Shown here: piece by piece, positions 869 to 21,855 of the stretch | How positions within the stretch are numbered: position 1 is the first letter of the stretch | Layout: every line of letters begins with the position of its first letter | Program-made: the position numbers and the translations under genes | The notes under the pieces: generated by a model | Database searches by the model: none | What the model was told of the DNA's origin: nothing | Seen by the model: only the letters and a program-made list of their open reading frames with translations | Source of the DNA: Candidatus Methanomethylophilaceae archaeon | GTDB taxonomy: Bacteria > Bacteroidota > Bacteroidia > Bacteroidales > UBA932 | Length of the DNA: 47,138 bases | Direction of reading: 5' to 3' | Assembly (NCBI GenBank): GCA_963617915.1 | Contig: CAVERO010000001.1 | Coordinates: forward strand, 1 to 47,138

Positions 869-1028
869 GAAGCTGTTTTGATTTGTTTGTTTGAAGGTTT
901 GAGAGTGAAAAACTTCAGGTTCGACCGCTTCTTCCAAGGAGGATAGCGGTGCTATCTGACTGAAGAAGCGGGAAGAAGATGAAGATTTTTCACCTCAAAG
1001 AACATTTCAAACAAATCAAAACAGCTTC
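869..1028 (+). mobile_element. 160-bp palindromic MITE-like element E1 (ERIC-like core)
   Basis: TIR GAAGCTGTTTTGATTTGTTTG / CAAACAAATCAAAACAGCTTC, TAA on both sides, core GGAG-GATAGC-ggt-GCTATC-TGAC at 938-960. Confidence 0.85.
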
Positions 1029-1078
1029 TAAAATCGTGACAAAGCCGTCTTGTTTTCGCAGGATCCGTATCGCAATGA

Positions 1079-1441
1079 TCAAAGCATAAGCATCGCCGCA
1101 GGACGTATCTTCAGAAAACGACAGATATGTCCGGCCGTTTTCAGGCTCGGCTCTGATTTCCCGGACACGAAATCATTCACTCGCGTCGTGCTGATTCCGA
1201 GTTCTTTCGCAAGTTGTTTCTGGGTAATATGATTCTCTTTCAAGCCGTCAGCGATAAGATCGGCAACGCTTGGTTTGGCTATAGGAAAATGCTCCTTCTC
1301 ATAATCAATGACAATGTCAGACATCATCATCAACTCAATGGCCTTGGGGTCATCCAATGGTGTGCAGTCATCAACCAGAGGAAGCAGATCCTCTACTCTT
1401 CTCTGCGCAAATCTGTACTGGTCTTCAGTGATCACCCTCAT
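1079..1441 (-). CDS. higA: HigA-type antitoxin (XRE HTH)
   Basis: 120 aa; N-terminal ITEDQY...DYEKEHFPI and C-terminal HTH (ITQKQLAKELGISTTRVNDFVSGK); directly downstream of higB. Confidence 0.9.
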   Translation of the reverse strand: MRVITEDQYRFAQRRVEDLLPLVDDCTPLDDPKAIELMMMSDIVIDYEKEHFPIAKPSVADLIADGLKENHITQKQLAKELGISTTRVNDFVSGKSEPSLKTAGHICRFLKIRPAAMLML

Positions 1442-1453
1442 AATTATACCCTC

Positions 1454-1753
1454 CTATATTGTTGAAGCATCAATTTTGTCATAATCTTGGTGAGTGCCGA
1501 CGAAACGTATGAAAACATACCCCATTACAATCTTAACAACGACAATCAACCTATACTTGTTGCCACCGATGTTAAAAACATAATGTTGGTTCCCCACATA
1601 GTCAACCGTTCCGAAAGACAACCGCATTTCCGCAAAAGAATGCCACCGTGCCTCCTCAACTGCATGATACCAACGTTCAAGTGGCACTTTTGCGTCTTCG
1701 TGCCCGGCTTGCTCATAAAATTCCTTCAGTGTTCTATGCGAAACGATTCTCAT
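1454..1753 (-). CDS. higB: HigB-type toxin (mRNA interferase)
   Basis: MRIVSHRTL...VFNIGGNKYRLIV...IRFVGTHQDYDKID. Likely start is the ATG at 1753; the longer ORF-track extension runs into repeat element E2. Confidence 0.9.
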   Translation of the reverse strand: MRIVSHRTLKEFYEQAGHEDAKVPLERWYHAVEEARWHSFAEMRLSFGTVDYVGNQHYVFNIGGNKYRLIVVVKIVMGYVFIRFVGTHQDYDKIDASTI

Positions 1754-1757
1754 TTTA

Positions 1758-1913
1758 GAAATCTTCAAAAAATAACCTGCATCATCTTTTTCATTCTTTT
1801 CGGCCTGGATTCCTTTTCTCATCAGTCGTGTACATCCGGTACACTCCTTCTTCCAAAAGAAATCTATACTCGAAAAAAAACAAATCTGAAGCAGTTTATT
1901 CTTTTCTTGTTTC
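1758..1913 (-). mobile_element. 156-bp palindromic element E2 (ERIC-like core) in the higB leader
   Basis: Minus-strand core GAAGAAGGAG-TGTAC-cggat-GTACA-CGACTGATGA, degenerate TIRs, TAA on both sides (plus-strand TTA at 1755-57 and 1914-16). Confidence 0.75.
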
Positions 1914-1923
1914 TTAACAGATA

Positions 1924-1988
1924 CAAATATATATAATAATTCCGTAAATCAAGATTTTTCATCGCAAAAATTCTCATTTACGGAATTA
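1924..1988 (-). promoter_or_regulatory. higBA promoter (-7 TATATTTG) and 13-bp inverted repeat, a candidate operator
   Basis: TAnnTTTG at 1924-1931; TAATTCCGTAAAT (1937-49) / ATTTACGGAATTA (1976-88). Confidence 0.6.
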
Positions 1989-2019
1989 ATGAACCTACAA
2001 GGTGACCTTGACTAGCGGA

Positions 2020-3240
2020 TTAAAGGAAACTGAAGGTGATGCTGACATCGCCGAAGCGGTTTGGCTTGCCGTTGTACTTCTCGAAGTAGTAGCTTGAAAG
2101 CTTGCCGCGCCAGACAAGGTCATCGTTGCGGCGGAAAGGCAGGTCAACCTCGAAACCATAAGACTTGGACTTGATCTTGACAAGACCGCTTGCCTTCCAC
2201 GAGGTCTGTTTGCCGCCGTCATCCTCAATCATAAGGAAGACACATTCCTCAAGCTGCGGAGTCCACTCCGACACAACTATAGTGTTGAACCGCAATGTAG
2301 TACCCACATATTTACGTTTCACATTGATCATCATGTCCGTGACCGAAGGGCTGTACAGCTTGAGTTCATCCTCGGTCTGGGCCGTGAATCCGCTCAAGGC
2401 TCCGCATTTGACAAAGAACTCCGAACCGCCGGCCAACCAGGAGTCATAGTTCCTGTGGGCTTTGAACTCTTTCAATACCAAAGTCTTGGAGTCACTGTTG
2501 GATCTTGTGTCCACGGAAAACGCACGCTCAGGGTAAAGAGCCTCGACCATCTGAGGCGTCATGTATGACGAATCCTCATTCCGGTTGATGACCCAAACGG
2601 GATGCGTGCGGGCATATTCCTCATCCACAACCACTTCCTTGACAATCCAGGAACCGTTCGGGAGCTGTTCCCGAAGAAAGCCCACATTCGACCCTCTCCC
2701 TTCAGTGATTACTGAATATGATCGCGTCTCCTCCTCCGGAGCAAATGTGATCACAGGCATGGTCTTCCCGTCCCAATCCTCGGAATACGGCCAGTAAATC
2801 TGAAGGCCTGAACCTGAAAGCGCTTCGGTAAAAGACCCGGCCCTGGTCTGCGGAAGGCCGGACGAAGACAGCAGGTCACGGAGCGGCTCAGGATATTCAG
2901 CCGCAGACCTTGTCGGGAGCAGTTCATCGCCTACTCCCGAGCCCGGGCTGGAAAACAGGTTGGAGAAAGGATACTCCTCATCATAACCGTTGGAAGACGA
3001 GGCTTTCACCCCGTCATACACCTCTCGCACCTGCGAGATTGTCAGAGGCAATCCGGAAAGCATTCTGGCCACACTTTCGGCGGAAAAGTCGGAGACGGAG
3101 CCCTCCATGGCGACAGGTTCCGAGAAGGAAAGACAAGGCTGTTCCGCACGCTCACAAGCGGAGAGAAACAGAACCGTCCCGGCCACAAGCGCCGGCCCCA
3201 CCGGGACCAGCAACTTCTTCATTGTACTGAAATTCTTCAT
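2020..3240 (-). CDS. Uncharacterised lipoprotein
   Basis: Long ORF with lipobox LFLSAC after a hydrophobic leader; start at 3240 or 3222. Confidence 0.75.
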   Translation of the reverse strand: MKNFSTMKKLLVPVGPALVAGTVLFLSACERAEQPCLSFSEPVAMEGSVSDFSAESVARMLSGLPLTISQVREVYDGVKASSSNGYDEEYPFSNLFSSPGSGVGDELLPTRSAAEYPEPLRDLLSSSGLPQTRAGSFTEALSGSGLQIYWPYSEDWDGKTMPVITFAPEEETRSYSVITEGRGSNVGFLREQLPNGSWIVKEVVVDEEYARTHPVWVINRNEDSSYMTPQMVEALYPERAFSVDTRSNSDSKTLVLKEFKAHRNYDSWLAGGSEFFVKCGALSGFTAQTEDELKLYSPSVTDMMINVKRKYVGTTLRFNTIVVSEWTPQLEECVFLMIEDDGGKQTSWKASGLVKIKSKSYGFEVDLPFRRNDDLVWRGKLSSYYFEKYNGKPNRFGDVSITFSFL

Positions 3241-3282
3241 CTTAAACGAGTTTAAAGTTAATATTGCAGCACAAAGTGACAT

Positions 3283-3316
3283 AAAAATAGCCGTGGAAAC
3301 AAAAAATCCACGGCTA
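3283..3316 (-). terminator. Intrinsic terminator after prmC
   Basis: TAGCCGTGGA / TCCACGGCTA stem followed by a T-run on the minus strand. Confidence 0.6.
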
Positions 3317-3351
3317 AGTGTCAAAAACGGCCACTGGGTTCCTTCCAGAGG

Positions 3352-4254
3352 CTATTTGGAATAAAACACAAAGCGGTTTTTGTCGTAAAAATCCTTGACG
3401 ACTTCCGTTTTCGGGAAACCTGCGTCGCTGAAAACTTTCGCTGTCTCGGATGCGAGAAGCTCATTGACCTCCGTCAGACCCTTGCCCTCGGCCGAAAGAC
3501 AGGAATGGGACAAGGCCGCGATGGAACGGTAGAACACCAACGGATCCCCATCCTCAACAAACAAAGCCGTTGAAGGCTCGTAGTTCAGGACATTGACCCG
3601 CATCTGGGTTTTCTGGGACTCCATTATGTAAGGAGGATTGCTGAGGACAAGGTCGTATTCCCCGTCAGCGAATGTCGGGTGCGCATCCAGAACATCGGCG
3701 ACAATGAACTTGGGAGCCAGCGCCCCGGTCTCTTTCAGCTTAAGCGCGAAATCCTGCGAAGAGGCGATGGCCACAGCCTTCTCTGATATGTCAACTCCCG
3801 TCACTTCCGCTCCCGGAATATTCAACGCCACTGTCCAGGCGATACACCCGGAACCGGTGCAGAGATCCAGAATACGGACAGGCCTTGCGGATTTACCATA
3901 AGCCTTTCTCATCCTCAGGATTCTTGAGCCGATCTTCACAGCCTCACGGCAAAGCAGCTCAGTCTCGGGGCGCGGGATGAGCACATCACGGGAAACCTTG
4001 AACCTGAGGCCGCAGAAGTCAGCGGACCCGATGACATACTGAATCGGCTCACCGGAGGCAAGCCTGTCAAGATCAGAGTGGAGAGCCTCCTGAGACTTGT
4101 CATTCACGGCATACTCAGGCTCAACGATGTGAGTGTAACTTTTAGTGCCGATGCGGCTCTCGCAAAGCATCAGCATTATGTTCCTTGCCTCCTTGGTCGG
4201 ATAAAGCGGCTCAAGGCGGGCAACACCTTCATTAAGGAAATCTTTCAATAGCAT
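3352..4254 (-). CDS. prmC: Release factor glutamine methyltransferase HemK
   Basis: GEPIQYV, VLIPRPETE, LDLCTGSGCIA and SNPPY motifs. Confidence 0.95.
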   Translation of the reverse strand: MLLKDFLNEGVARLEPLYPTKEARNIMLMLCESRIGTKSYTHIVEPEYAVNDKSQEALHSDLDRLASGEPIQYVIGSADFCGLRFKVSRDVLIPRPETELLCREAVKIGSRILRMRKAYGKSARPVRILDLCTGSGCIAWTVALNIPGAEVTGVDISEKAVAIASSQDFALKLKETGALAPKFIVADVLDAHPTFADGEYDLVLSNPPYIMESQKTQMRVNVLNYEPSTALFVEDGDPLVFYRSIAALSHSCLSAEGKGLTEVNELLASETAKVFSDAGFPKTEVVKDFYDKNRFVFYSK

Positions 4255-4283
4255 AGGCTTGATAGTCTAAATCAGAATTGTTG

Positions 4284-5300
4284 TTATGAGTTCTCTATTA
4301 TTCCTGTCAGGAAATCCGTGATGTCCATCCCCGCCGCGCGGATCATCTTCGGCACGAGCGAAGCGCTGGTCATTCCGGGGATAGTGTTGACCTCCAGGAA
4401 ATAAAGGCCGTCTTCGGCGAGAATATAATCCATCCTGACCACACCGGAGCAACCGAGCCTCGAATATATTCTTTTGCTTACTTCCTGAATATGCCCGCTC
4501 AGGCTCCCGTCAATCGGGGCCGGGCAGATCTCCTGACTGTGGCCGTTGTACTTGGCGTCGTAGTCAAAATAGTCATTTTCAGTGACAATCTGAATCACAG
4601 GCAAAGACTTGACCCCATCCTGGGCAGCGTAGGCCGCACAGGTGAACTCACGTCCTGATATTCCTTGTTCTATAATGACAGAAGGCCCCTCGGAAAAGGC
4701 GAACCGGACAGCCTCCGGCAGATCCTCGGCCTTGCGGACCTTGGTGATTCCGAAACTTGACCCCCCGTCCGTAGGCTTCACGAAGACCGGGAATGTCAAA
4801 CTATCCGCCACCTTACGGCATACAGCGTCAATGTCCATTCCGTTGCGGACAAAGACATCCGGCGCGCACTTCACAAAATCGACCTCCCGCAGATAACTCT
4901 TGCAGGCGAACTTGTCAAAGGCGATCGCCGAGACAAACGCTCCGCAGCTGCTGAACGGAACCCCGAGCATCTCAAGATAACCCTGAAGAAGACCGTTCTC
5001 CCCCGGAGTGCCGTGCTGCATTATGTAGGCATAGTCGAACTTTATCTTTTCCCCATAGACCTTGACGGAGAAATCCGTCTTGTCAATCTCAGGCCTTGCT
5101 CCCTCCGCGAAAGGAATCCTCATGGCGTTCCTCTTCCTCATGGCCACAAGAGACCATTTGCCGAATCTGGCAAAAATCTCATAGACATCGTACTTCGTAC
5201 CGTCGATGCGGGAAGCGACAAACTCCCCGCTGCGGCAAGCGACCTCCCATTCCGATGAGTCACTTCCATAAATCACTGCAATCCTTTGGTACTTGCACAT
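4284..5300 (-). CDS. ddl: D-alanine--D-alanine ligase
   Basis: HGTPGENG, FVKPTDGGSSFG, DYDAKY and LEVNTIPGMT motifs. Confidence 0.95.
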   Translation of the reverse strand: MCKYQRIAVIYGSDSSEWEVACRSGEFVASRIDGTKYDVYEIFARFGKWSLVAMRKRNAMRIPFAEGARPEIDKTDFSVKVYGEKIKFDYAYIMQHGTPGENGLLQGYLEMLGVPFSSCGAFVSAIAFDKFACKSYLREVDFVKCAPDVFVRNGMDIDAVCRKVADSLTFPVFVKPTDGGSSFGITKVRKAEDLPEAVRFAFSEGPSVIIEQGISGREFTCAAYAAQDGVKSLPVIQIVTENDYFDYDAKYNGHSQEICPAPIDGSLSGHIQEVSKRIYSRLGCSGVVRMDYILAEDGLYFLEVNTIPGMTSASLVPKMIRAAGMDITDFLTGIIENS

Positions 5301-5330
5301 AATCAATTGTATATTCCTGATATATTCCTT

Positions 5331-7682
5331 TTACTCAAAATAGTAGTCCTCCGTCTTCTGCTGCGCGTCCGTGGCGTCGTCGTCGCCTCCGGTGCAGTTC
5401 AGGTCGAGGCTCACGCCGGCAGGGGCAATGAAGCGGTCATTCTCCGAGACGCCGAGAGTCCCGTCCTCGATGACTTTGCGCATGAATATTCCCCAAGTCG
5501 GCAGGGACATATGTGCGCCTTGGCCGTAAGTGATTGACTGGAAATGCACCTGACGGTCTTCCGCCCCGGTCCATATTCCGGCCACGAGGGTCGGGGTGTA
5601 GCCTATGAACCAACCGTCCGCATTGTCGTTGGTGGTCCCGGTCTTTCCGGCGATCTCGCCCATCAGCTTGTAGCGGTAGCGAAGCCTGCTGGCGGTCCCG
5701 CCCTGCACGACACCCTCCATCAGATTGACCATCAGGTAGGCCGTGTTCTCCCCAATCGCCTCACGTTTGCGGTTGGTGAACTCGCTGATGACGTTGCCTT
5801 GGTTGTCCTCAATCCTCGTAACGAACATAGGCTCGATGTAAACGCCTCTGGACGGGAACGTGTTGTAGGCCGCGACCATCTCCCAAAGAGACAGGTCTGC
5901 GGGACCAACACACAAAGCCGGAACCTCATCGATATGGCTCTGAATCCCCATCCTGCGCATCATGTCAGCCATCGCCTCCGGGCCGAACTGCTTCATCAGA
6001 TAGGCGGAGATGTTGTTCGAACTGTTGGTGAGGCCCCATTTCAGGGTGACCGTCTTGCCTATCCACTGCTCCTTGTCGGTACTCCTCGGAGTCCAGGTGT
6101 TGCCGTCCGGAAGGACAAAGGTCTGAGGAAGGTTCACGACCTTGTAGCAAGGGGTCATGCCCTCCTGCATCGCAAGGGTGTAGAGGAACGGTTTGATTGT
6201 CGAACCGACCTGACGCTTGCCCTGACGGACGTTGTCGTACTTGAAGTAGCGGTAGTTCGGGCCTCCGACGTATGCCTTCACGTGTCCCGTTCCCGGCTCC
6301 ATCGCCACAAAGGCCGTGCGGAGAATCGACTTGTAGTAGCGGATCGAGTCATCCGGAGTCATGGTGGTGTCGGAATAGCCTTTCCTGTTATAGGCGAAGA
6401 CGCGCATCTTCGTCGGCTGTGAGAATGTCTTCAGAATCTGAGCCTCCGTAAGTCCTTCCTTCTTAAGCGTGCGGTAACGGTCGCTCCACCGTCTGGCCTG
6501 GCGCATGACCCTGTCCCGCGTCTCTTCGTCTATGTCATTGGAGAAAGGCTTGTTGGTCTTGCTTTTCAAATCCCTGCGGAAATCCGCCTGAAGGTCGCGG
6601 ATTCTCTCGGCGACAGCCTCTTCGGCATATTTCTGCATCTTGTAGTTGATGGTCGTGTAGATCCGCAGGCCGTCCCTGTCAAGGTCATACCTGCCGCCGT
6701 CCGCCTTCCTGTTCTTCTCAAGCCAGCCGTAAAGGTCGTCCGCCGCCCAGGCAAGAGAGTCGGCCGAGTAGTCCTCCAGCACTGAATAATCGGAGCGGCG
6801 AGGCTTTCTGGCGTTCATCACGCGACGGACCATGTCCCTGAAATACGGCGCCAGACCGGCGTTGTGGTCCTGCACCTCATAGTTCAGTTCGATCGGAATA
6901 AGGCGGATGGAATCCCTCTGGGCCTTCTCAAGATAACCCGCCTTCTCCATCTGGCCGATCACGAAGTTCCTTCTGGTCAAGGCCTTGTCCGGGTTGATGG
7001 CCGGGTTGTACCTTGTCGGCTTGTTGACCATTCCGACAAGCATTGCGCTTTCCTCGACGGTGAGCTCTGACGGGAGCTTCCCGAAGAACGTCTCCGACGC
7101 CGAACGCACACCGTACGCTCCGCTGCCGAAGAATATGGAGTTGAGGTACATCGTCATGATCTCGTCCTTGGTGTAGTCCCTTTCCAGCTTCACGGCGGTG
7201 ATCCACTCCTTCAGTTTGGTCCACACCATCCTGACATGGTATATTCCCGGAATCCTGCGTCCCATCTCCGCCCTCGGGTAGAGGGTCTTGGCCAGCTGCT
7301 GGGTGATCGTGCTGCCGCCGCCCTGACTGGAGTTGTGCAGCAGGATGGTCTTGAAAAACACTCGCCCGAGACCTTTGAAATCGATTCCTGAATGCTTGTA
7401 GAAACGGACATCCTCGGTAGCCACGGCGGCATGGACAAGGTTCGGAGAAATCTCGTCGTAGGAGACGTAGGTCCTGTTCTCGATGTGGAATGTCGTCAGA
7501 ATCTCCCCGTCCTCGGCGATGACCTGTGTGGCCAGCTTGTTGTCAGGATTCTCCAGATCCTTGAACGACGGGATGTCGGCGAACATCCAGACAAGGAGTA
7601 CCATAAGGACAAGAAGCAGAACCGGAAACGTCACCACGATCCAGAACCACTTGATTATTTTCTTTCGAGTTGTGTCGGTCAT
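5331..7682 (-). CDS. mrcA: Class A penicillin-binding protein 1A
   Basis: N-terminal TM; EDVRFYKH and GGSTITQQLAK transglycosylase motifs; STIK, SSN and KTGT transpeptidase motifs. Confidence 0.93.
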   Translation of the reverse strand: MTDTTRKKIIKWFWIVVTFPVLLLVLMVLLVWMFADIPSFKDLENPDNKLATQVIAEDGEILTTFHIENRTYVSYDEISPNLVHAAVATEDVRFYKHSGIDFKGLGRVFFKTILLHNSSQGGGSTITQQLAKTLYPRAEMGRRIPGIYHVRMVWTKLKEWITAVKLERDYTKDEIMTMYLNSIFFGSGAYGVRSASETFFGKLPSELTVEESAMLVGMVNKPTRYNPAINPDKALTRRNFVIGQMEKAGYLEKAQRDSIRLIPIELNYEVQDHNAGLAPYFRDMVRRVMNARKPRRSDYSVLEDYSADSLAWAADDLYGWLEKNRKADGGRYDLDRDGLRIYTTINYKMQKYAEEAVAERIRDLQADFRRDLKSKTNKPFSNDIDEETRDRVMRQARRWSDRYRTLKKEGLTEAQILKTFSQPTKMRVFAYNRKGYSDTTMTPDDSIRYYKSILRTAFVAMEPGTGHVKAYVGGPNYRYFKYDNVRQGKRQVGSTIKPFLYTLAMQEGMTPCYKVVNLPQTFVLPDGNTWTPRSTDKEQWIGKTVTLKWGLTNSSNNISAYLMKQFGPEAMADMMRRMGIQSHIDEVPALCVGPADLSLWEMVAAYNTFPSRGVYIEPMFVTRIEDNQGNVISEFTNRKREAIGENTAYLMVNLMEGVVQGGTASRLRYRYKLMGEIAGKTGTTNDNADGWFIGYTPTLVAGIWTGAEDRQVHFQSITYGQGAHMSLPTWGIFMRKVIEDGTLGVSENDRFIAPAGVSLDLNCTGGDDDATDAQQKTEDYYFE

Positions 7683-7788
7683 AATAAAGACAAATTTATA
7701 ACAAAATTTGGAAAATTGCCCGGTTTGTGGTTTACTTTGCAGATTGAAATGGCAAACTATCTATGAAAGACCTGTAAAATAGTACAAT

Positions 7789-10101
7789 ATGGCAGACAAT
7801 CTAGTTATCGTCGAGTCTCCGGCCAAAGCCAAGACTATACAGAAATTCCTGGGCAAAGACTATGTGGTCAAATCCAGTTTCGGTCACATCAGGGACCTTC
7901 AGGACAAGAAACTGAGCGTGGACGTGGAAAGGAACTTCACTCCTGAATATGTCATACCTTCCGACAAGAAGAAGGTGGTGGCCGAACTGAAGAAAGCGGC
8001 GGGTAGCGCTTCCACAGTGTGGCTTGCGTCCGATGAGGACCGGGAGGGAGAGGCAATCTCCTGGCATCTCTTCGAGACCCTCGGACTGAACGAGGCCCAG
8101 ACAAGGAGAATAGTGTTTCACGAAATCACAAAGGATGCGATAGTGAACGCGGTGCGGAATCCGCGCTCGATTGACATGAACCTTGTCAACGCCCAGCAGG
8201 CGCGCAGGGTTCTTGACAGGCTTGTGGGCTTCGAGCTTTCCCCTGTCCTTTGGAGAAAGATCCAGCCGAAGCTCTCGGCGGGGCGCGTGCAGTCCGTGGC
8301 CCTGAGGCTTGTGGTCGAGAGGGAGAAGGAGATCATGGCGTTCGAGAACGAGGCGTTCTACAAAGTCGAGGCATTCTTCCATCCTGCCGGATTCCCGGCG
8401 TCGGTCAAGGTCAAGGCCGCGCTGGACACGAAATTCAAGACAAAGGACGAGGCGAGGGCGTTCCTTCAGGACTGCATTGGAGCGGATTTCACGGTCGCCG
8501 ATGTGGAGAAGAAAGAGGCCATGCGCTTCCCTGCCGCTCCGTTCACGACCTCGACGCTCCAGCAGGAGGCGGCAAGGAAGCTTCACTTCCCCGTCAGCGT
8601 CACGATGAGGGTGGCCCAGGGCCTTTATGAAAAAGGTCTCATCACATACATGAGGACCGACTCAACGAATCTTTCCACCCTGGCTCTCGGGACGGCGAAG
8701 AAATTCATCACCGACAATTTCGGCCCTGAATATTCCAAGACACGTCAGTTCAAGACCCACAGCAAGGGTGCGCAGGAGGCTCACGAGGCCATCCGCCCGA
8801 CATTCATCGACAACACCTCCATCGAAGGAACGGCGCAGGAGCAGAAACTCTACAACCTGATCTGGAAGAGGACCGTGGCGTCCCAGATGGCCGACGCGAA
8901 GGTTCTCAACACCACCCTCAGGGTGGCTTCCGACAGGAGAGCCGAGAGGTTCAACGCCCAGGCCACGCAGGTGCTGTTCGACGGATTCCTTAAATTGTAC
9001 ATGGAAGGGACGGACAACCAGGAGACCGAAGAAGAGGAGATCATGCTTCCGGACCTTCAGGTCGGGACCGCGATGGAGGAAAACGGGATGAGCGCAGAGT
9101 GCAAGTTCACCGCGGCTCCGCCAAGATATTCAGAGGCCACTTTGGTCAGGAAACTTGAGGAACTCGGAATCGGGCGTCCTTCCACCTACGCCCCGACCAT
9201 CGCCACCCTGACCACAGGGCGCGGCTACATCGTCAAGGGTGACAAGGAAGGCCGGAAAGTCAACGTCAATGACCTGACTCTGAAGAACGGGAACATTACC
9301 GAAATAATCAAGACCGAGACAATCGGGGCCGAAAGGGGAAAACTGCTTCCCCAGGAGATCGGAATGATAGTGACCGACTACCTTGAGAAGAATTTCACCG
9401 ACATCATGGGCTACGACTTCACGGCCAACGTCGAGAAGGAGTTCGACCAGATCGCGGACGGGAAACTTGTCTGGAACGATGTCATAGGGGCTTTCTACAC
9501 TCCTTTCCACAAGAAGGTGGACGAGGTGCTCCACGACGGCAACTACAGCCATGTGTCCAAAGAGCTCGGCACAGACCCGGAAGGCAACAAGATCACCGCG
9601 AAGTTCGGCAAGTTCGGCCCTTACATCCAGAAGGGAGAAGGCGAGAAAGCACAGTTCGCGTCCCTCGGCAAGGACCAGCTCATCGAGAACATCACCCTTG
9701 AGGAGGCTCTCGGAATGTTCCGGCTGCCGCGCACTGTCGGGGAATATAACGGTGTCGAGGTGGTCGCATTGAAAGGCCGCTTCGGTCCATACCTGAAATA
9801 CGGCGACAAGAACTTCTCGATTCCGCGCGGCAAGGATCCTCTCAAGATCACCTTGGACGAATGCGCGGCAGTGATAGACGAGGGCCTGAACAAGACCGCC
9901 GCCAATTCCGTGATGGCTGAATATCAGGACAGCGACATCCAGGTCATCAACGGCCGCTACGGCCCGTACATCAAACACGCCGGTTCAAACTACAAGATTC
10001 CGAAGGAGACAGACGCCGCCACTCTCACCGAAGCGGACTGTCTGGAAATCATTAACAATTCAAAACCGACTGAAAAAGGGCGGCGGCGTTTTAGTAAGTG
10101 A
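7789..10101 (+). CDS. topA: DNA topoisomerase I
   Basis: LVIVESPAKAKTI, DEDREGEAI, ITYMRTDS and C-terminal GRFGPY repeats. Confidence 0.98.
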   Translation: MADNLVIVESPAKAKTIQKFLGKDYVVKSSFGHIRDLQDKKLSVDVERNFTPEYVIPSDKKKVVAELKKAAGSASTVWLASDEDREGEAISWHLFETLGLNEAQTRRIVFHEITKDAIVNAVRNPRSIDMNLVNAQQARRVLDRLVGFELSPVLWRKIQPKLSAGRVQSVALRLVVEREKEIMAFENEAFYKVEAFFHPAGFPASVKVKAALDTKFKTKDEARAFLQDCIGADFTVADVEKKEAMRFPAAPFTTSTLQQEAARKLHFPVSVTMRVAQGLYEKGLITYMRTDSTNLSTLALGTAKKFITDNFGPEYSKTRQFKTHSKGAQEAHEAIRPTFIDNTSIEGTAQEQKLYNLIWKRTVASQMADAKVLNTTLRVASDRRAERFNAQATQVLFDGFLKLYMEGTDNQETEEEEIMLPDLQVGTAMEENGMSAECKFTAAPPRYSEATLVRKLEELGIGRPSTYAPTIATLTTGRGYIVKGDKEGRKVNVNDLTLKNGNITEIIKTETIGAERGKLLPQEIGMIVTDYLEKNFTDIMGYDFTANVEKEFDQIADGKLVWNDVIGAFYTPFHKKVDEVLHDGNYSHVSKELGTDPEGNKITAKFGKFGPYIQKGEGEKAQFASLGKDQLIENITLEEALGMFRLPRTVGEYNGVEVVALKGRFGPYLKYGDKNFSIPRGKDPLKITLDECAAVIDEGLNKTAANSVMAEYQDSDIQVINGRYGPYIKHAGSNYKIPKETDAATLTEADCLEIINNSKPTEKGRRRFSK

Positions 10102-10254
10102 TTCCTAAAAAATAACTTGGTGCTTTTGTTCGTCTTTTTGGCCTAAATTTATTTGTTCATCAGTCATGTGCCACCGGCACACTCCTTCTTCTCAAACAAA
10201 TTTATCCGCAAAAATCCTTCACAAAACCTTACCAACTTATTTTTTCATCATCAC
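10098..10254 (-). mobile_element. 157-bp palindromic element E3 (ERIC-like core), contains the topA stop codon
   Basis: Plus-strand TAA-GTGATTCCTAAAAAATAACTTGGT...ACCAACTTATTTTTTCATCATCAC-TAA; minus-strand core GAAGAAGGAG-TGTGCC-ggt-GGCACA-TGACTGATGA. Confidence 0.8.
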
Positions 10255-10257
10255 TAA

Positions 10258-10341
10258 GCGGTAAAAAATAAGTTGCCGCAGATTTGGCAAAGATTTTTGA
10301 GGATAGATTGCCTGAAATGAGGCAAGTTATTTTTTAACGGT
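10258..10341. repeat. Short core-less derivative abutting E3
   Basis: Imperfect TIR GCGGTAAAAAATAAGTTGCCGCA / TGAGGCAAGTTATTTTTTAACGGT; starts right after the TAA closing E3. Confidence 0.6.
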
Positions 10342-10410
10342 TATAAAAAATCTTGACATTTTAAGTTTTTTTACATATTTTAGCGGCTGTTTAGTAATAA
10401 ATCGAAAGCA

Positions 10411-10926
10411 ATGGCAACTTATCACATCGATCAGATTGACCAGAAAATTCTTTCTTTCTTGGTCAACAACGCCAGGATGCCTTTCCTGGAAATCGCTCGT
10501 GAGTGCGGTGTTTCAGGAGCCGCGATCCACCAAAGAGTAAAAAGACTTGAGACCAACGGTGTCATCACGGGATCGAGGCTGCTCGTAAAGCCTCAGGCTT
10601 TGGGGCTCAACGTGTGCGCGTTCATCAGCGTCACCCTTTCCGAAGCGAACAAATACCCTGAAGTCGTGGCGAATCTGAAGAAAATCGCCGAGATTGTGGA
10701 ATGCCATTTCGTGACAGGGAAGGCGGCCTTGCTTCTAAAGGCATATTGCTTTGACAATGATCACCTTATGGAGATTCTTATCAACACTATCCAGAACATC
10801 CCTTACATCCAGTCAACCGAGACGATGATCTCCCTTGACCAGGCTATCGAGCGTCAGGTTTGGGTCAAGGACTACAAACGGACCGCCTACCAGCCTAACA
10901 ACGGTCTCGGAAAGAAGACGAAATAA
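10411..10926 (+). CDS. Lrp/AsnC family transcriptional regulator
   Basis: IDQIDQKILSFLVNNARMPFLEIARECGVS HTH plus a RAM domain. Confidence 0.93.
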   Translation: MATYHIDQIDQKILSFLVNNARMPFLEIARECGVSGAAIHQRVKRLETNGVITGSRLLVKPQALGLNVCAFISVTLSEANKYPEVVANLKKIAEIVECHFVTGKAALLLKAYCFDNDHLMEILINTIQNIPYIQSTETMISLDQAIERQVWVKDYKRTAYQPNNGLGKKTK

Positions 10927-11626: not shown

Positions 11627-11698
11627 ATAATTTCTCACAAATATAACTTTTTTCGTATATTTACGAGTTGTATAATATTATGTATAATAATAACAGTT

Positions 11699-13554: not shown

Positions 13555-14060
13555 GAAACAGTTTTGCGTTGACATACATCTTGTTGACAGTCGCCCAGAT
13601 GATCCTGAGCAACTATTTCCATTTCACTCCTTATGTGATGGTCACAATCCTGCCGACGATGGTTCTCTGCATCCCGACCAAGACCGACACTGCCGGAGCG
13701 ATGCTGATAGCCTTCGTCACCGGTCTCGCCGTGGATTTCTTCGCTGAAGGCGCCTTGGGCATAAACGCCCTGTCTCTGGTCCCCGTGGCGCTGCTCAGGA
13801 AGCCGGTCATCGGAATATTCTTCGGCAACGAACCATTTGAACAACAGGAGAACATCTCCATCAAGAAATATGGCTTCGTCAGAGTGTCGTTCGTCGTCAC
13901 GCTGATGACCCTGCTGTTCCTGCTGATCTACTTTGCGGCCGACTGCGCCGGCACAAGACCATTCTGGTTTGTCGCGACCTGTACCGGACTTTCGACACTC
14001 GCCAGCTACATCGCTTCAGTATGTATCCTCAATCAGCTGACCTATGAAGACAGAAGGTAG
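13551..14060 (+). CDS. mreD: Rod shape-determining protein MreD
   Basis: Hydrophobic 169-aa protein between mreC and PBP2; GLAVD motif. Confidence 0.85.
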   Translation: MRNSFALTYILLTVAQMILSNYFHFTPYVMVTILPTMVLCIPTKTDTAGAMLIAFVTGLAVDFFAEGALGINALSLVPVALLRKPVIGIFFGNEPFEQQENISIKKYGFVRVSFVVTLMTLLFLLIYFAADCAGTRPFWFVATCTGLSTLASYIASVCILNQLTYEDRR

Positions 14061-15891: not shown

Positions 15892-15898
15892 TTGGAGG

Positions 15899-17344
15899 AT
15901 GGTGAACTTTTCGGACAGAGGGATCAAACGGAGTGTTGACTGGGCGCTGGTGGTCACTTACCTGCTCCTCATCCTCATCGGATGGGTCAACATCTACGCC
16001 TCCATCCATTCCGAAGGGCCGGCGTCGGCTTTCGATTTCGGATTCCGCTGCGGCAAGCAGTTCGTGTGGATTCTTACGGCCTTGGGGCTCGCCGGGATGA
16101 TTCTTTTCGCGATAAACCCGCAATTCTGGGAAAGCTCGTCGCTGATTCTGTACCTGGGTGTCCTGGGGATGCTCGTGGCTGTGATATTCCTTGGAATCGA
16201 TGTCAAGGGCTCCAGATCCTGGTTCGAGTTCGGATTCATCAGGTTCCAGCCTGCCGAAGTCTCGAAAATCACCACGTCATTACTTTTGGCCACGCTATTG
16301 AGCCAAGCCAATTTCCGGATAACCCGGTTCAAGGACTTTCTTCTGACGGTTCTGATTCTCGGAATACCTATGGTCGTCATCCTGGCGGAAAAAGAAACGG
16401 GTTCGGCATTGGTGTACGTCGGATTCATATTCGTCATGTACAGAGAAGGTTTTTCTGGTTGGTGGATATTCTGCATCGGGATGGCGGTCCTGCTGTTCAT
16501 CCTCACTCTGACTGTCTCGCCCTACGTGTCCATCCTTGTGCTTGCGGGCGTGCTTCTGCTGTGCAACGGATTGGAATCCGGCAGAACCGGAGTGCCGCTC
16601 TGGATATTCACGGGAACATTCCTGCTCCTTTGCCTGTTGCCTTGGGTTTTCGGGAAATTCGGCCCGGAATCCTTCCTGTCAAAGATAAATCCTCTTTACA
16701 TTCTGATCGCGGTCTGCTTCGCTGCCGCACTGTACATGATGATCCTTGGCTATAAGTCGCGCCGCCGTTTTCTGTCAATGTCGGCTTTGGGACTGATGGC
16801 CGGGATAGCCCTCGTGTTCTCCACCGAGTTCATATTCAACAACATCCTTCAGGAGCATCAACGGAAAAGAATCGAGGTGCTGCTGGGCATGACGGAGGAC
16901 CCGACCGGGGTCGGCTACAATGTCAACCAGAGCATGATAGCCATCGGTTCAGGCGGTTTCTCCGGGAAAGGTTTTCTGGGCGGCACTCAAACCACCTTCG
17001 GTTTCGTGCCGGAACAAAGCACGGATTTCATCTTCTGCACAGTCGGAGAGGAATGGGGATTCCTCGGCTGCCTTGTCGTGATTGCCCTGTACGTGTTCCT
17101 GATTTCCAGAATAATTACCGACGCGGAGAAAAGCAGGGGGGCGTTCACACGGATTTATGGCTATTGTGTCGCCTCCTGCATATTCATGCACCTCTTCATT
17201 AACATCGGGATGACAATCGGCATTATGCCCGTGATCGGAATTCCTTTGCCTCTGCTCAGCTATGGAGGTTCGTCGCTATGGGCTTTCACCGTGTTGATTT
17301 TCATATTCATAGCCCTTTACCGGCAGGAAAAGAAGTATTATTAA
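15899..17344 (+). CDS. rodA: Rod shape-determining SEDS protein RodA
   Basis: FQPAEVSK, TDFIF and GIPLPLLSYGGSS motifs; follows mrdA. Confidence 0.95.
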   Translation: MVNFSDRGIKRSVDWALVVTYLLLILIGWVNIYASIHSEGPASAFDFGFRCGKQFVWILTALGLAGMILFAINPQFWESSSLILYLGVLGMLVAVIFLGIDVKGSRSWFEFGFIRFQPAEVSKITTSLLLATLLSQANFRITRFKDFLLTVLILGIPMVVILAEKETGSALVYVGFIFVMYREGFSGWWIFCIGMAVLLFILTLTVSPYVSILVLAGVLLLCNGLESGRTGVPLWIFTGTFLLLCLLPWVFGKFGPESFLSKINPLYILIAVCFAAALYMMILGYKSRRRFLSMSALGLMAGIALVFSTEFIFNNILQEHQRKRIEVLLGMTEDPTGVGYNVNQSMIAIGSGGFSGKGFLGGTQTTFGFVPEQSTDFIFCTVGEEWGFLGCLVVIALYVFLISRIITDAEKSRGAFTRIYGYCVASCIFMHLFINIGMTIGIMPVIGIPLPLLSYGGSSLWAFTVLIFIFIALYRQEKKYY

Positions 17345-17419
17345 CCCATACCTTATCCAGCGTTTGAAGAGCTTCCTATGCGAATAATCAATTCACGTTA
17401 CTCCTAGAACAGCTTCTAA

Positions 17420-17491
17420 GAAGCTGTTTTGATTTGTTTGAAATGTTCTTTGAGGCGAAAAAACTTCAAACAAACAACTCAAAAAAGCTTC
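17420..17491. mobile_element. 72-bp internally deleted derivative of E1
   Basis: TAA-GAAGCTGTTTTGATTTGTTTG...AAAAAAGCTTC-TAA; preceded by a leftover AACAGCTTC end. Confidence 0.85.
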
Positions 17492-17542
17492 TAAAAATAG
17501 GCACTTTCCGGAGGTTTTTCACAATCAATGAGTTTTTTTTAG

Positions 17543-17550
17543 TAACTTTG
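17543..17550 (+). promoter_or_regulatory. Bacteroidota -7 promoter element for tRNA-Leu
   Basis: TAACTTTG 9 nt before the tRNA. Confidence 0.65.
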
Positions 17551-17559
17551 CAATCTATC

Positions 17560-17644
17560 GCCTTGGTGGTGAAATGGTAGACACGAGGGACTTAAAATCC
17601 CTTGGACAGAAATGTCCGTGCGGGTTCGATTCCCGCCCGAGGCA
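17560..17644 (+). tRNA. tRNA-Leu(TAA)
   Basis: GCCTTGG/CCGAGGC acceptor stem, anticodon loop CTTAAAA, long variable arm, GGTTCGATTCC T-arm. Confidence 0.97.
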
Positions 17645-17753
17645 CAAGGACGATAACCTATTTATTCGCTGATATTCAATAAATTACACACTACCCAACT
17701 ATAATATAGGGAGTGTCAGGCAAGATTTAGAAGCTGTCTTCGACGCATCAAGG

Positions 17754-18770
17754 CTACGGAAGAGCCGGACGGAGGATGTCGGCTATGGCGGCGGTTTCGA
17801 TGAGGAAACCGTCGTGGCCGTAAGGGGTCTCAATCTGGTGATAGCGGGAGCCTGGAACCAGTTCCGAGAGGGGTTTCATGTCCTCGGGAGGGAAAAGTTC
17901 ATCGGAAGACATACAGACGAATGTGCAGTCGGTCCTTATCTTGGACAGTGCGGCGGCGACTCCCCCGCGGCCGCGACCGACGTTGTTGCTGTCAACCTCG
18001 TCACATACATAGAGATAGGAATAGGCGTCCCAGTCCTTGACAAACTTCGAGGTCTGGTGGCGGTAGTAAGAGCCTACCTTGCCGGCGAACACTGTGTCGT
18101 CGCTGTCCTCGTTCTGCTTGAAAAGACCTTCCTCGCAGCGGTAGGTCAGCAGGGCTATGGCGCGGGCGGCCTTCAGTCCCTCCATGCCGCCGTGCAGGTC
18201 ATGGTGTTCCTTGAAGGTCGGGTCGGCTTGAAGAGCCATACGGATGGCGGCGTTGAACCCTGCGAGCCACGGGGTCACGCGGGCTCCGGTGGCGATGAAG
18301 AATATCCTGCCGAACATTCCGGGGCGCATCACAGCCCACTCGAATGACATGAATCCGCCCATCGACGTACCAATCAGCACATCAATTTTCTCTATTCCAA
18401 GATGTTGCCTCAGCAGGTCGAAAGCACGGACGGTGTCCCGGACGGTCACGTGAGGGAATTCGAAATAGTAGGGTCTGCCGGTTTTGGGGTTCGTGGACGC
18501 CGGACTTGACGAGCCGCAGGCCGAGCCGAGGACATTGGCGCAGACCACGAAATATTTCTCCGTGTCAATCAGTTTGCCCGGGCCGACCAGCGCCGGCCAC
18601 CAGGTTCCCTCGGGATTCGAGTCCGCCGTGAGGGCGTGGCAGAGCCAGATGACCTTCCTGTCCCGGGAATATTCAAAAGGCGATGTGTGGTAGGCAACCT
18701 CCAGATTGTCGATGCTTCCTCCGGCCTCGAACTCAAAGGATCCCTTGTGCTTATAGATGTGCTTGATCAT
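17754..18770 (-). CDS. metX: Homoserine O-acetyltransferase (alpha/beta hydrolase fold)
   Basis: CHALT, WWPALVGPGK, GTSMGG and GHDGFLIE motifs. Confidence 0.9.
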   Translation of the reverse strand: MIKHIYKHKGSFEFEAGGSIDNLEVAYHTSPFEYSRDRKVIWLCHALTADSNPEGTWWPALVGPGKLIDTEKYFVVCANVLGSACGSSSPASTNPKTGRPYYFEFPHVTVRDTVRAFDLLRQHLGIEKIDVLIGTSMGGFMSFEWAVMRPGMFGRIFFIATGARVTPWLAGFNAAIRMALQADPTFKEHHDLHGGMEGLKAARAIALLTYRCEEGLFKQNEDSDDTVFAGKVGSYYRHQTSKFVKDWDAYSYLYVCDEVDSNNVGRGRGGVAAALSKIRTDCTFVCMSSDELFPPEDMKPLSELVPGSRYHQIETPYGHDGFLIETAAIADILRPALP

Positions 18771-21474
18771 TGTCTTTCAATGGTGTGAATGAATATCCTT
18801 TCCGGCGCAGCTCCCTGATCAGTCCGGGAAGCTTGTCGTAGAATTTGTCCGTCCTGGCCGGATCCGTGCCGAGGTGAATCAGCATTATGTGGCCGTTGAG
18901 GCCGTCGGGATCCGTCCTTTCATATTCCCAAATCCTGTGGAGTATTTCCTTGCTGCTGAAGTAGCGGCTCATTCCGGGGGTGGTGTAGTCGCCGTTGGTG
19001 AGAGTCCCGGGGGTGTAGTTGATGACTTGCAGGCCGAGCTGGCGGGCCCAGGAAGAGATGGTCGCGTTGTAATGCTCGTAAGGCGGGATGAAGTAAGGCG
19101 CATCGGTGACGCCGAACTCCCGCAGCAGCCTGTAGCTCTTGAACATGTCCTCGTTGAACTCCTGCCTTGTCACCAGCAGGGAATCCCGATTGTCCCAAGG
19201 AGCGTAGAGCAGGTGGCCGTAGGAGTGGCTTCCGACGTAATGCCCTTCGGACACAAGCCGTCTTGCAACATCGGGGTACAGCTCGAAGAACTCTCCGGTG
19301 AAGAAGAATCCGCCCTTGATGTTGTACTTCCGAAGCGTGGAGATGATCTTTTCCGCTCCGTCGTCCTTGTCGGCCGCGGTGAACACAAAGTCTATGTGCT
19401 TGACCGACGGGTCGGTCCGTATTATTCCGCCGTCCTGATAGATGTTATTGTCAGTGGGGGCGGCAATGGAGGCGGCGATGGCATTGGACACCGCGGGCCT
19501 GTCGCTTTGCGACCCTGTCCGGGCGAATGTCCCGCGGCATCCATTGCCACCGCCGCCATCGTGCGATTTACAGGTTTCGCCAGCGGGAAGCACGGGGGCA
19601 TTGGACTTGGCAGTCCATTTACCCGGACAGGGTCGCGAAGCGACAGGACTGCCAAGTCCAATGCCGCCGTGCGCCTCCAAGCAATAAACCCTTCCTTCAC
19701 GCTGATAGTAAGACAACGGGAATGTCAGCGAGGCAGTACCGTCCATGGTAGGCTCGTTGGTGGAATAGTCATGTGTGCTGTCGTGATAGACCAGGTCGCC
19801 CGGCTGGAACTCCTCGTAGTTGATGCCCCCATCTGTGCGGATTCCAAGAAGGCTGCCGAAGATAGTCGCATAGACAGGGCCGTCAACCAGACCTCCCGTG
19901 GTGTTGCCCATCTTGTAGTTGATGATGAAAGAGTGTGGCTGGGTCGGGAATGTTCCGCCCTTCGGAAGCTCCACGATCATGCTCACGCCCCAAGGGTTGC
20001 AGCCCAGAAGCCAGTCGCGCAAAGCCCCCTCCATCTCCTGATAGGTCGTGTCACCGGTCAGTTCACGGTAAAGGATGCACTGGGTCAGCATCGCCGAACT
20101 CAGGTTGTTGGAACACCATATTCCCGGAATGCCGAAGAGGAACGGATGATTCTTCCCCCGCTCATAGACCCTCTGGATTCCGGAGCGGATGTTCCTGACG
20201 AACTCCGCCGAGACCTTGCCCCCGAAGTTCCTCGCTATGCGGTAATGCCCCATGTTCATGAAAGGATACCACTGGTAGTGGCGCGCGCTGTCGGCCCCCA
20301 TCCATGGGGTCACAGGCTCGCGGCGGGCATATTCAATGGCATCTGTCCGGTACTTCGCCTCGCCCGTGCGGCGGAACATCTCGTAGGCCGCCAACTCCAT
20401 GTCATCCACCCAGTTGTCCTCCTCGTAGATGTACGGGGAGACCACCGAGGCAGTCTGGCAGACTCCCGGTTTCGCGACTCCCGCATCGTAGGCGGCCTTC
20501 GCCTTCGCTCCGATCTTCTCTGCGAACTCGGGGTAGAACGGCCTTAGGATCTCCGCCCCGAGAGCGAAGTCGGAGGCGAACTTCCCGGCCGTGCTGGCGA
20601 CTCCCGTGGTCTTGTTCCTGTCCCCGCGTTTTCCTCTCCGCTGAGGCTCGCCGGAGCAGAACCAGACCGGGCGGTACTCCCCTTTCCCCCAACCGTAGTC
20701 TGCCTGATCATCGTTCGGAACACGCATTCCGACGTGGTCGCGGTCATCCGCGATCTGGTTGTACATCTCCCCCGGCTCAGGATTCATCTTGTCCAGCCAC
20801 TTGAGACCCCAATAAATCTCATCGACGATGTCCGGAATCCCGTTCCTGCCGGGAGTGCCGTCAGCCAAGCAATTGTCGGAGAAGGCCTCCGGATTGCTCT
20901 GATAGGCGAACATCATCTGGTAAATCGCATTGGCAGAGGTGGTCGTGTACTGAAGGCAGTCCGAGGCGTCGTGCCATCCGCCCGTCACGTCAAGGAACGT
21001 GCTGTCCTTCCGGGGATCCGGATGCCCGACGATGATCCCATCCTTGCGGTGGCAGATGTCCTTGAAGAAAGGATTCCAGCCGCAGCGCTGCTGACGCATG
21101 TAGTTCAGCACGAAATCCGCCGTGCCGTCATAGACCTTCGGATTAATCGGGAATATCTCCGAGCGGACCCCCGACACCGGTTCTTTAATATAATAGGCTC
21201 CTTCGGCCCGCAATGCGCTGAAATCCAGACGGAAGGTCGTCTTCATCCGTCCGAGCGGCCCGGTAGGCCTTACAACCTCCGATTTCCAGACCACCTCGCC
21301 GGTAAAGGCGTCAACCAATTCAAAGCCGGTGACTTGAACGGCCTCGTCGCTCATGAAGACGGCCACCTTTGTGGCCTGGGGCAGGTAGCCTATCTGATTG
21401 ATTCTGATCCAGGATCCGGCGAACGCCTGAACGGCTGCAAGAACAAGGACGGTTATTGTGGCTAATCTTTTCAT
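18751..21474 (-). CDS. Secreted GH9 glycoside hydrolase fused to a C-terminal polysaccharide deacetylase (CE4/NodB) domain
   Basis: Signal peptide; IRINQIGY, DVTGGWHDASD and YSTNEPT (GH9); FFFTGEF, GSHSYGH, PPYE and LIHLG (NodB). Confidence 0.9.
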   Translation of the reverse strand: MKRLATITVLVLAAVQAFAGSWIRINQIGYLPQATKVAVFMSDEAVQVTGFELVDAFTGEVVWKSEVVRPTGPLGRMKTTFRLDFSALRAEGAYYIKEPVSGVRSEIFPINPKVYDGTADFVLNYMRQQRCGWNPFFKDICHRKDGIIVGHPDPRKDSTFLDVTGGWHDASDCLQYTTTSANAIYQMMFAYQSNPEAFSDNCLADGTPGRNGIPDIVDEIYWGLKWLDKMNPEPGEMYNQIADDRDHVGMRVPNDDQADYGWGKGEYRPVWFCSGEPQRRGKRGDRNKTTGVASTAGKFASDFALGAEILRPFYPEFAEKIGAKAKAAYDAGVAKPGVCQTASVVSPYIYEEDNWVDDMELAAYEMFRRTGEAKYRTDAIEYARREPVTPWMGADSARHYQWYPFMNMGHYRIARNFGGKVSAEFVRNIRSGIQRVYERGKNHPFLFGIPGIWCSNNLSSAMLTQCILYRELTGDTTYQEMEGALRDWLLGCNPWGVSMIVELPKGGTFPTQPHSFIINYKMGNTTGGLVDGPVYATIFGSLLGIRTDGGINYEEFQPGDLVYHDSTHDYSTNEPTMDGTASLTFPLSYYQREGRVYCLEAHGGIGLGSPVASRPCPGKWTAKSNAPVLPAGETCKSHDGGGGNGCRGTFARTGSQSDRPAVSNAIAASIAAPTDNNIYQDGGIIRTDPSVKHIDFVFTAADKDDGAEKIISTLRKYNIKGGFFFTGEFFELYPDVARRLVSEGHYVGSHSYGHLLYAPWDNRDSLLVTRQEFNEDMFKSYRLLREFGVTDAPYFIPPYEHYNATISSWARQLGLQVINYTPGTLTNGDYTTPGMSRYFSSKEILHRIWEYERTDPDGLNGHIMLIHLGTDPARTDKFYDKLPGLIRELRRKGYSFTPLKDNDQAHL
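19471..19672. repeat. Two inverted ~85-bp palindromic units inserted in frame in the GH9-CE4 linker
   Basis: Hairpins at 19471-19557 and 19590-19672; the two loops are near reverse complements of each other. Confidence 0.85.
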
Positions 21475-21513
21475 CTTTCCTAAAGAAGTGGCAAACTTAT
21501 TTTCACTTACTCA

Positions 21514-21585
21514 GAAGCTGTTTTGATTTGTTTGAAATGTTCTTTGAGGTGAAAAATCTTCAAACAAACAATTCAAAACAGCTTC
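21514..21585. mobile_element. 72-bp internally deleted derivative of E1 in the GH9 leader
   Basis: TCA-GAAGCTGTTTTGATTTGTTTG...CAAAACAGCTTC-TCA. Confidence 0.9.
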
Positions 21586-21638
21586 TCAAAAACAGCGGCA
21601 AAATCCGCGGCAGCCATTTTTGCCGCCGACAAAGCCCA

Positions 21639-21687
21639 CAAATTTAGGAAAAATAGCCGTCCGAAACTCAGAAAATGCTTACTTTTG
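21639..21687. promoter_or_regulatory. Divergent -7 promoter elements (GH9 operon / ispF operon)
   Basis: TAAATTTG on minus strand at 21639-46; TACTTTTG on plus strand at 21680-87. Confidence 0.55.
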
Positions 21688-21692
21688 TCTAA

Positions 21693-21855
21693 GAAGCTGT
21701 TTTGGAATGATTCCCGAATCTTATTATGCGGATTATCCGAGACAGTTTCGGCTTCGGAAGAGGGAGCGTAGCAGTAGCTACGTGACCGATGACGAAGATG
21801 AAAATGGCCGGAAAGGCCGTGTAAGAAAAGAGAGGAATCATTCCAAAACAGCTTC
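21693..21855 (+). mobile_element. 163-bp palindromic element E4 (ERIC-like core) in the ispF leader
   Basis: TAA-GAAGCTGTTTTGGAATGATTCC...GGAATCATTCCAAAACAGCTTC-TAA; core GAAGAGGGAG-CGTAGC-agta-GCTACG-TGACCGATGA. Confidence 0.88.

Follow-up and report, generated by a model that had tools for sequence, protein, structure and literature searches.

Introduction

The terminal repeats read by DDE transposases are taken to be double stranded, and recognition of a subterminal hairpin is the mark of HUH enzymes. To our knowledge, the way in which ERIC elements move has not been tested since 1990. ERIC elements (also IRU or RU-1) are described as 127 bp long with TA ends (PMC2229807) and have been filed as MITEEc1 under IS630 (PMC11602168); elements of the IS1031 group favor TNA as target and generate a repeat of 3 bp (PMC12016507, PMC1676026); and MITEPye1 of Paracoccus yeei is a 159-bp rod-folding MITE with IS1182-type ends and 4-bp repeats (PMC11578231).

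We followed up a sequence-only reading of a window of 47,138 nucleotides (the whole stretch of DNA analyzed), which had proposed that four elements of about 160 bp, E1 to E4, belong to a mobile, ERIC-like family with a conserved center. The spacing of the GGAG motif, the folding of the core strand, a hairpin-ended group of IS5-family elements in Muribaculaceae, and the probable IS-type origin of the termini are newly found here; the literature searched, chiefly non-subscription (including PMC10969869, PMC3184786, and PMC3281130), yielded no description of the core, the spacing, or hairpin-ended IS5 elements.

Results

The four elements and their surroundings in the window

Re-reading the sequence placed the four full-length elements where they had been reported, with the strands, lengths, and termini given: E1 at 869..1028 (+ strand, 160 bp), E2 at 1758..1913 (- strand, 156 bp), E3 at 10098..10254 (- strand, 157 bp), and E4 at 21693..21855 (+ strand, 163 bp). 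The core, GGAG-stem-loop-TGAC, occupies 938..960 (+) in E1, 1825..1847 (-) in E2, 10163..10185 (-) in E3, and 21763..21786 (+) in E4, that is, 69, 66, 69, and 70 nt, respectively, from the element's 5' end. All four center stems differ and all pair perfectly, and each element folds as a single rod (fold z of -7.9 for E3 and -3.65 for E2, with 0 of 200 dinucleotide shuffles as good). Pairwise identity among the four is merely 49 to 66% in gapped alignments, while length and fold stay constant. Covariance-model scores were 24 bits for E1, 76 for E2, 82 for E3, and 80 for E4; the inner module is all that E1 retains of the core.

The claim that each element is flanked by a repeated TAA held for E1 (866-868 and 1029-1031), E2, and E4 on their own strands; the repeat of E3 is TTA on its own strand (TAA on the + strand). 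E3 was inserted at a TAA within the end of another member, an older core-less one with a GTAAGCGG-type end, which it now splits (10094..10344, +) and whose empty site is a single TAA. Two core-less E1-type deletion derivatives of 72 bp lie at 17420..17491 (+, TAA duplicated) and 21514..21585 (+, TCA duplicated); these and the nesting of E3 had escaped the sequence-only reading. A lone E1-type right-end remnant sits at 17407-17419, directly before the first of these, with a tRNA gene nearby at 17560.

E2 is immediately upstream of the region where higB starts, E4 terminates 5 bases before the start codon of ispF (YgbB family), and the stop codon of a topoisomerase I open reading frame (ORF) now comes from the terminus of E3 (window 10094-10101). 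A HigBA toxin-antitoxin pair is located between E1 and E2 (window 869-1913), the two elements facing in inverted orientation; E1 and E2, each with its own duplication, could act together as a composite. REP-like tandem palindromic repeats of 18 and 21 bp are present at window 1-72 and 34934-35096, and the genome that carries them yielded no Y1 transposase.

Structure, covariation, and breadth of the core

Searching the genome collection with a pattern blind to the stem returned at least 121 loci. Among the matches listed, 110 of 122 had a perfect stem of at least 5 bp, with 30 different stem starts, and the record titles included Prevotella, Muribaculaceae, Barnesiella, Rikenellaceae, and Lewinella as well as Eremiobacterota, Vicinamibacteria (acidobacterial), Verrucomicrobiales, Nannocystineae, and Lachnospiraceae. 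The family is thus not confined to Bacteroidota, as had been supposed, since the core is present in several phyla, e.g., Eremiobacterota, Acidobacteria, and Verrucomicrobiales.

For the core alignment, 128 candidates were reduced by dropping 20 with stems shorter than 3 bp and by thinning at 80% identity to 73, of which 70 were used. The center is conserved and covaries as predicted: over 16 pairs, 91% of cells were paired in these 70 nonredundant copies, and 311 two-sided changes were observed versus 87 in shuffles (0 of 500 shuffles as high), while slid controls paired in 26 to 49% of cells. The stem filter favors the inner pairs; the six outer pairs (69 to 89% paired) and an R:Y pair were unfiltered, and the latter was G-C in 52 cases, A-T in 48, and G-T in 10, and never A.C (n = 110). 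Judging from the alignment, we read the core as a probable stack of short stems that include tandem G.A oppositions. In most core hairpins, C-G closes a loop of just two bases (alignment columns 67-72); a two-base loop closed in this way is stable in DNA, not in RNA.

At gathering score, Rfam recovered only 3 tRNAs from the window and left the elements unmatched, and the core was likewise unmatched by Rfam in the nine non-ERIC loci tested. The motif CTGATGA raised the question of a hammerhead ribozyme, which is a three-way junction with GAAA and NUH; this candidate was rejected, as the alignment shows a two-way stack and Rfam gave no match.

Copies, mobility, and decay

The genome of the window (2.82 Mb in 264 contigs, 84.7% complete) contains 102 occurrences of GGAG, a perfect stem of at least 5 bp, and YGAC, versus 1, 3, 2, 4, and 4 for five altered control patterns. 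By our reading of the list, 93 of the 102 are cores of family copies, well beyond the four elements, and 9 are chance-like. BLAST of this genome with five representatives gave 254 merged loci covering 25,486 bp, 130 of them at contig ends; with half of its loci so placed, the family, at about 25 kb of matched sequence, also shapes gene neighborhoods and assembly.

That the family is mobile was borne out by target duplications, by nested insertions with empty sites, and by patchy presence. Duplications were counted on copies located by their ends alone, an earlier way of calling ends having rewarded identical flanks; counted in this way, 20 of 21 full E1 copies had identical 3-bp flanks (TAA or TTA in 18, GAA in 1, and TGA in 1), and genome-wide the target is TWA, sometimes TNA. 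On contigs C51 and C100, E1 copies are nested within E3-type copies, and in such nested insertions the uninterrupted host has one TAA and the filled site two. The pattern matched 100 times in this genome, 27 times in genome G039, and 0 to 7 times in each of the other 149 of 151 genomes of the same family, of which G062 and G050 hold genuine copies; a stricter pattern matched in 3 of 301 genomes of the order, one being a stemless chance match. Family copies were also found on Bacteroidales prophage contigs, and a search of a plasmid collection gave no match for E4 or for an Eremiobacterota copy. As in MITEs generally, the elements are short and noncoding, with terminal inverted repeats, target duplication, and many copies.

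The 72-bp core-less forms stem from deletion between short repeats, in either arm and in several subtypes. End mismatches were found in 6 of 16 core-less copies versus 0 of 21 full copies (p 0.003), and identical flanks in 9 of 16 versus 20 of 21 (p 0.012). This fits core-less copies being dead remnants; they could also be older simply because the deletion had to follow insertion. In three longer copies (L143, L146, and L186), a copy of the left end forms a new right end beyond the old one, which hints that ends are replaced, through template switching or nested capture.

Origin of the termini

Metagenomes scanned for the E1/E4 end together with TWA gave at least 119 loci, including whole ISs of 870 to 919 bp with IS5-family transposases (NF033580). 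The sequence-only reading had called the termini variable, and those it listed are present; they do not seem to be free, however, but rather to be IS-type terminal repeats, the end of E1 being identical at 16 of 16 bases to that of an IS1031-type IS (L566). E4 agrees with IS1031-type ends at 14 of 16 bases, and the ends of E2 and E3 match none of the ISs found (8 to 10 of 16 at best). The ends of E1 and E4 are closer to those of plain core-less ISs than to those of the core-bearing IS group described below, and the 3-bp TNA-type duplication of the IS1031 group is also present in this family.

Other members share ends with other lineages: a distant IS5-type IS and a hairpin element of one genome agree at 19 of 20 bases, and acidobacterial hairpin elements agree with a DUF772-DDE (IS1182-like) IS at up to 20 of 22. 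The duplication made by the acidobacterial elements is TA within CTAG, and the same holds for 21 of 21 examined copies of the IS1182 of genome G152, where this target is common to the IS1182-type ISs and adjacent hairpin elements. The core is absent from the end-matching IS1031-type, distant IS5-type, and IS1182-like ISs. Strong model matches occurred in 4 of 48 short-element loci with E1/E4-type ends, among the matches listed; because the core is missing from most short elements that have these ends, it is not required by IS1031-type transposases in general.

In G152, two IS1182-type ISs are in burst (L387-L416 and L356-L384; 94 DUF772 matches) and often adjoin hairpin elements; the 462-aa protein of G152 was labeled IS1182-type from PF05598 and PF01609 matches. 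Eight loci (L449, L486, L497, L533, L555, L558, L559, and L565) combine E1/E4 ends and a TWA target with unrelated, often REP-like palindromes, and in three of them (L555, L558, and L565) the hairpin is a different one, near which a G.A motif lies. Viral contigs held only short elements and plain ISs.

Fixed spacing and strand asymmetry

Of 52 clean-ended elements (one of them, L201, from an unpublished genome), 47 have GGAG at 67 to 71 nt from the 5' end, Eremiobacterota and acidobacterial copies included; ends were searched for over 35 to 130 nt, and this spacing was therefore not imposed. The opposite arm takes up inserted branches and so ranges from 42 to 115 nt. With RNA and DNA parameters, 81 of 81 elements gave a lower fold for the core strand than for its complement, and G-T pairs are confined to one strand.

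Full-length IS5-family elements with the hairpin

Longer copies enclosing an ORF, which the sequence-only reading had recommended looking for, do exist: in L170, an IS1031-type gene lies between two inverted core hairpins, and a second copy of this 1.26-kb IS occupies another TAA-duplicated site in the same genome. Among 301 Muribaculaceae genomes searched, relatives were found in 35; of the loci returned, the core lay beside the gene at 14, and no ordinary IS of about 896 bp had it. In nine core-bearing ISs with 18 ends, the offset of GGAG (once GAAG) is 69 in 14 ends and 68 in 1, the other 3 being one degenerate end and two ends without GGAG, and the inner module is the sole constant part of the core. 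Several of these ISs are pseudogenes. Only the Muribaculaceae sample yielded core-bearing ISs; IS1031-type matches in the phylum of genome G151 (5 of 171 genomes) and in the class of G152 (8 of 171 genomes) were without the core, as were the IS1182 loci.

The transposases of this group match NF033580, PF13340, and PF01609 and are deeply diverged yet coherent (43 to 68% identity). A tree, from which two long rows were omitted, split 12 core-group rows from 29 others with an SH-aLRT of 99, three of the 12 (L601, L615, and L616) being cut by contig ends and placed by kinship; a slower tree rendered the core group as an open basal grade. A signature before the catalytic Glu, V[KE]SN[FY]G, is present in 10 of 12 core-group rows (the other two end earlier) and in 0 of 31 others, and it occurs in 7 of the best 150 representatives. 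A structure model of a core-group transposase (pLDDT 72), in which the signature falls in or beside a low-confidence stretch, yielded only generic DDE matches, none of them reaching E 0.001.

For L605, the DNA fold is predicted to consist of a looped gene, two hairpins, and a stem of about 32 bp at the termini, which in the model would be the shape of a short rod whose 3' arm bears a branch; with one hairpin per IS end, each IS strand may be able to fold into the short-rod shape, the gene looped as a branch. One gene-less element of 327 bp with E1-type ends, L465, has two cores. A GGTAA-type motif follows each hairpin about 133 nt from the ends and can pair across the gene (L595, L598, L605, L606, L614, and L628); it may be a relic inner IS end.

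In a rival explanation, the elements are ordinary IS5-type MITEs whose center has no part in transposition and is inherited cargo or acts at the RNA level in host transcripts, on their stability or processing, as ERIC reportedly does in Yersinia. In its favor, ends and targets are of the IS5-clan kind, many core-less MITEs have these same ends, G-T pairs on one strand are what an RNA fold would give, and rod folding is typical of bacterial MITEs (PMC2229807). However, the elements show no preferred direction relative to flanking genes (8 sense and 8 antisense at co-directional sites, from crude ORF calls), insertions are tolerated in one arm only, and a fixed distance to the cut end is hard to explain in this way, as is the inverted placement at both IS ends, which argues against a transcript function because an mRNA would contain only one of the two hairpins. 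We consider this explanation unlikely, and the structured-RNA role that the sequence-only reading had offered as an option likewise seems unlikely, having gained no support from gene orientation, which is even, or from Rfam, which gave no match.

Search for the mobilizing enzyme

No IS1031-type transposase gene was found in the genome of the window (84.7% complete, with 130 of 254 repeat loci at contig ends), in G039 (97% complete), or in G152, a long-read acidobacterial genome with many young copies, which has only IS1182-type ISs without the core. A co-occurring transposase had been suggested as a clue; an IS1031-type match was present in just 5 of 33 core-bearing genomes, mostly as fragments. 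Several candidates were rejected: the five PF01609 matches of the window's own genome (IS4-like, two IS1634-like, IS1380-like, and a broken IS5 fragment, names that are partly our reading) and its IS1182 3' fragment have ends that do not match, and a weak DDE match in G039 is unrelated. PF13359, PF13340, PF13586, and PF13358 were not found in the window's genome.

In view of these results, a host factor is a serious rival: a shared host or other factor, not the transposase, would read the hairpin and aid any IS5/IS1182-clan transposase in trans, and the core-bearing ISs would have captured two half-elements. The same 69-nt spacing occurs with the ends of three transposase lineages whose own ISs are without the core, and the gene-less, two-core L465 is in keeping with such a factor. 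Nevertheless, no gene family recurs beside about 110 core loci among the matches listed, and the core-bearing transposases are coherent and diverged with a signature of their own, which points to coevolution with the enzyme; we judge a host factor rather unlikely.

An HUH enzyme (RAYT/TnpA) handling the core as a REP-like hairpin on single-stranded DNA would suit the strand-specific fold, and enzymes of the IS200/IS605 and RAYT kinds recognize subterminal hairpins of 20 to 25 nt (PMC6006769). But PF01797 was not found in the window's genome or G039 and is present in only 18 of 34 core-bearing genomes, no core was found near 10 Y1 loci, and the presence of target duplications, of terminal repeats, and of a DDE gene lying between cores is evidence for DDE chemistry, making this explanation highly improbable.

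Kinship with ERIC

A GGAG-CTTAC-type motif fetched 26 loci, three of which were measured and are 127 bp long with TA ends; we take these loci to be ERIC from their match to the description in PMC2229807. One ERIC-type locus sequence was found in 5426 of 5426 E. coli genomes, at a median of 12 places. The covariance model matches ERIC only centrally, 24 of 25 matches covering positions 41-65 of 104. The GGAG-stem-TGAC module is central in the rod of the ERIC loci, a finding that is partly circular as the loci were fetched by motif; an unselected motif, AGGCG, immediately precedes 19 of 22 non-Bacteroidales cores and, in 22 of 26 ERIC-type loci, is located 23 to 24 nt upstream. The label ERIC-like thus holds for kinship with the ERIC center, but the elements are not ERICs, which differ in length, target, and spacing; ERIC could plausibly be a distant relative, and it is not the family to which E1 to E4 belong. 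Three Rfam sRNA families, V_AS5, CssrA, and Ysr49, overlap ERIC-type copies (L283, L285, and L289), and the V_AS5 consensus has a different central stem, so these Rfam families may be ERIC derived.

Discussion

E1 to E4 are more than ordinary MITEs and form what looks like a new form of IS5-clan element, one whose strand-specific hairpin keeps a constant distance from an end. We think it somewhat more probable than otherwise (about 0.55) that they are non-autonomous partners of IS5-clan DDE transposases and need this subterminal hairpin in cis. They would be moved in trans by transposases of the IS1031 type, which duplicate TNA or TWA, and would carry a second cis signal: the hairpin, with its tandem G.A mismatches, that one strand alone forms about 69 nt from its own 5' end. 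By binding this folded hairpin, a protein would be held at a fixed distance from the end and may help the transposase to engage that end and may relax the need for an exact terminal sequence, making ends from several IS lineages usable. The hairpin would then have a role in transposition and be needed for amplification, and copies that lose the core by microhomology deletion would stay put and decay. Recognition of a folded strand by a protein left unnamed had been the proposal of the sequence-only reading; the folded strand is still the likeliest role of the center, and candidates can now be named, IS5-family DDE transposases, one group of which is hairpin ended.

A further reading goes beyond this partnership, and we offer it tentatively, as possible. 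In it, the element would be engaged as a folded single strand or cruciform in an undescribed class of DDE transposition, with the G.A-mismatch hairpin as the recognition site and a 69-nt ruler fixing the end; the cross-phylum short rods would be parasites that swap IS5 and IS1182 ends; and ERIC would be the enterobacterial branch, which would make its mobilizer an IS5/IS1182-clan enzyme and not IS630. Such a system, if real, would combine HUH-like recognition with DDE chemistry.

That the hairpin keeps its distance across phyla and at both IS ends suggests that these elements move in an undescribed way guided by structure and are linked to ERIC; this ties cross-phylum short rods to ERIC and comes with named candidate enzymes. 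The hairpin-ended DDE group is a cloneable pair, transposase plus mini-element, with which structure-guided DDE transposition can be tested directly.

Among known systems, the IS1031 group shares with this family G-starting terminal repeats and the 3-bp duplication of TWA or TNA, and with the core-bearing ISs a DUF4096 plus DDE_Tnp_1 transposase of about 250 to 275 aa; its ordinary members, however, measure about 860 to 920 bp, with no subterminal hairpin and terminal repeats of 22 to 25 nt, whereas the core-bearing group measures 1.08 to 1.26 kb when intact, has terminal repeats of mostly 34 to 38 nt, and has a private protein signature. MITEPye1 is like the family in length, rod fold, and IS1182-type ends and differs in its 4-bp repeats; no core was seen by eye in the one supplement sequence inspected (PMC11578231). 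Sequences of the present family may already be contained, unannotated, in the bulk MITE files of PMC11602168. IS200/IS605 and RAYT-REP systems resemble the core-bearing ISs in that each end has a small, strand-specific subterminal hairpin, the two being inverted around the gene; unlike them, the core-bearing ISs use DDE and not HUH chemistry, have terminal inverted repeats and target duplication, and hold the hairpin about 69 nt from the end. ERIC shares the rod fold, the inner RG-GAG-stem-TGA-CY module, and short deletion forms with this family, and TA duplication with its non-Bacteroidales members; it is 127 bp long versus 155 to 206 bp for the family (156 to 163 bp for E1 to E4), its core lies 52 nt from the end versus about 69 nt, and it has TA ends, in contrast to the 3-bp TWA target in the genome of the window.
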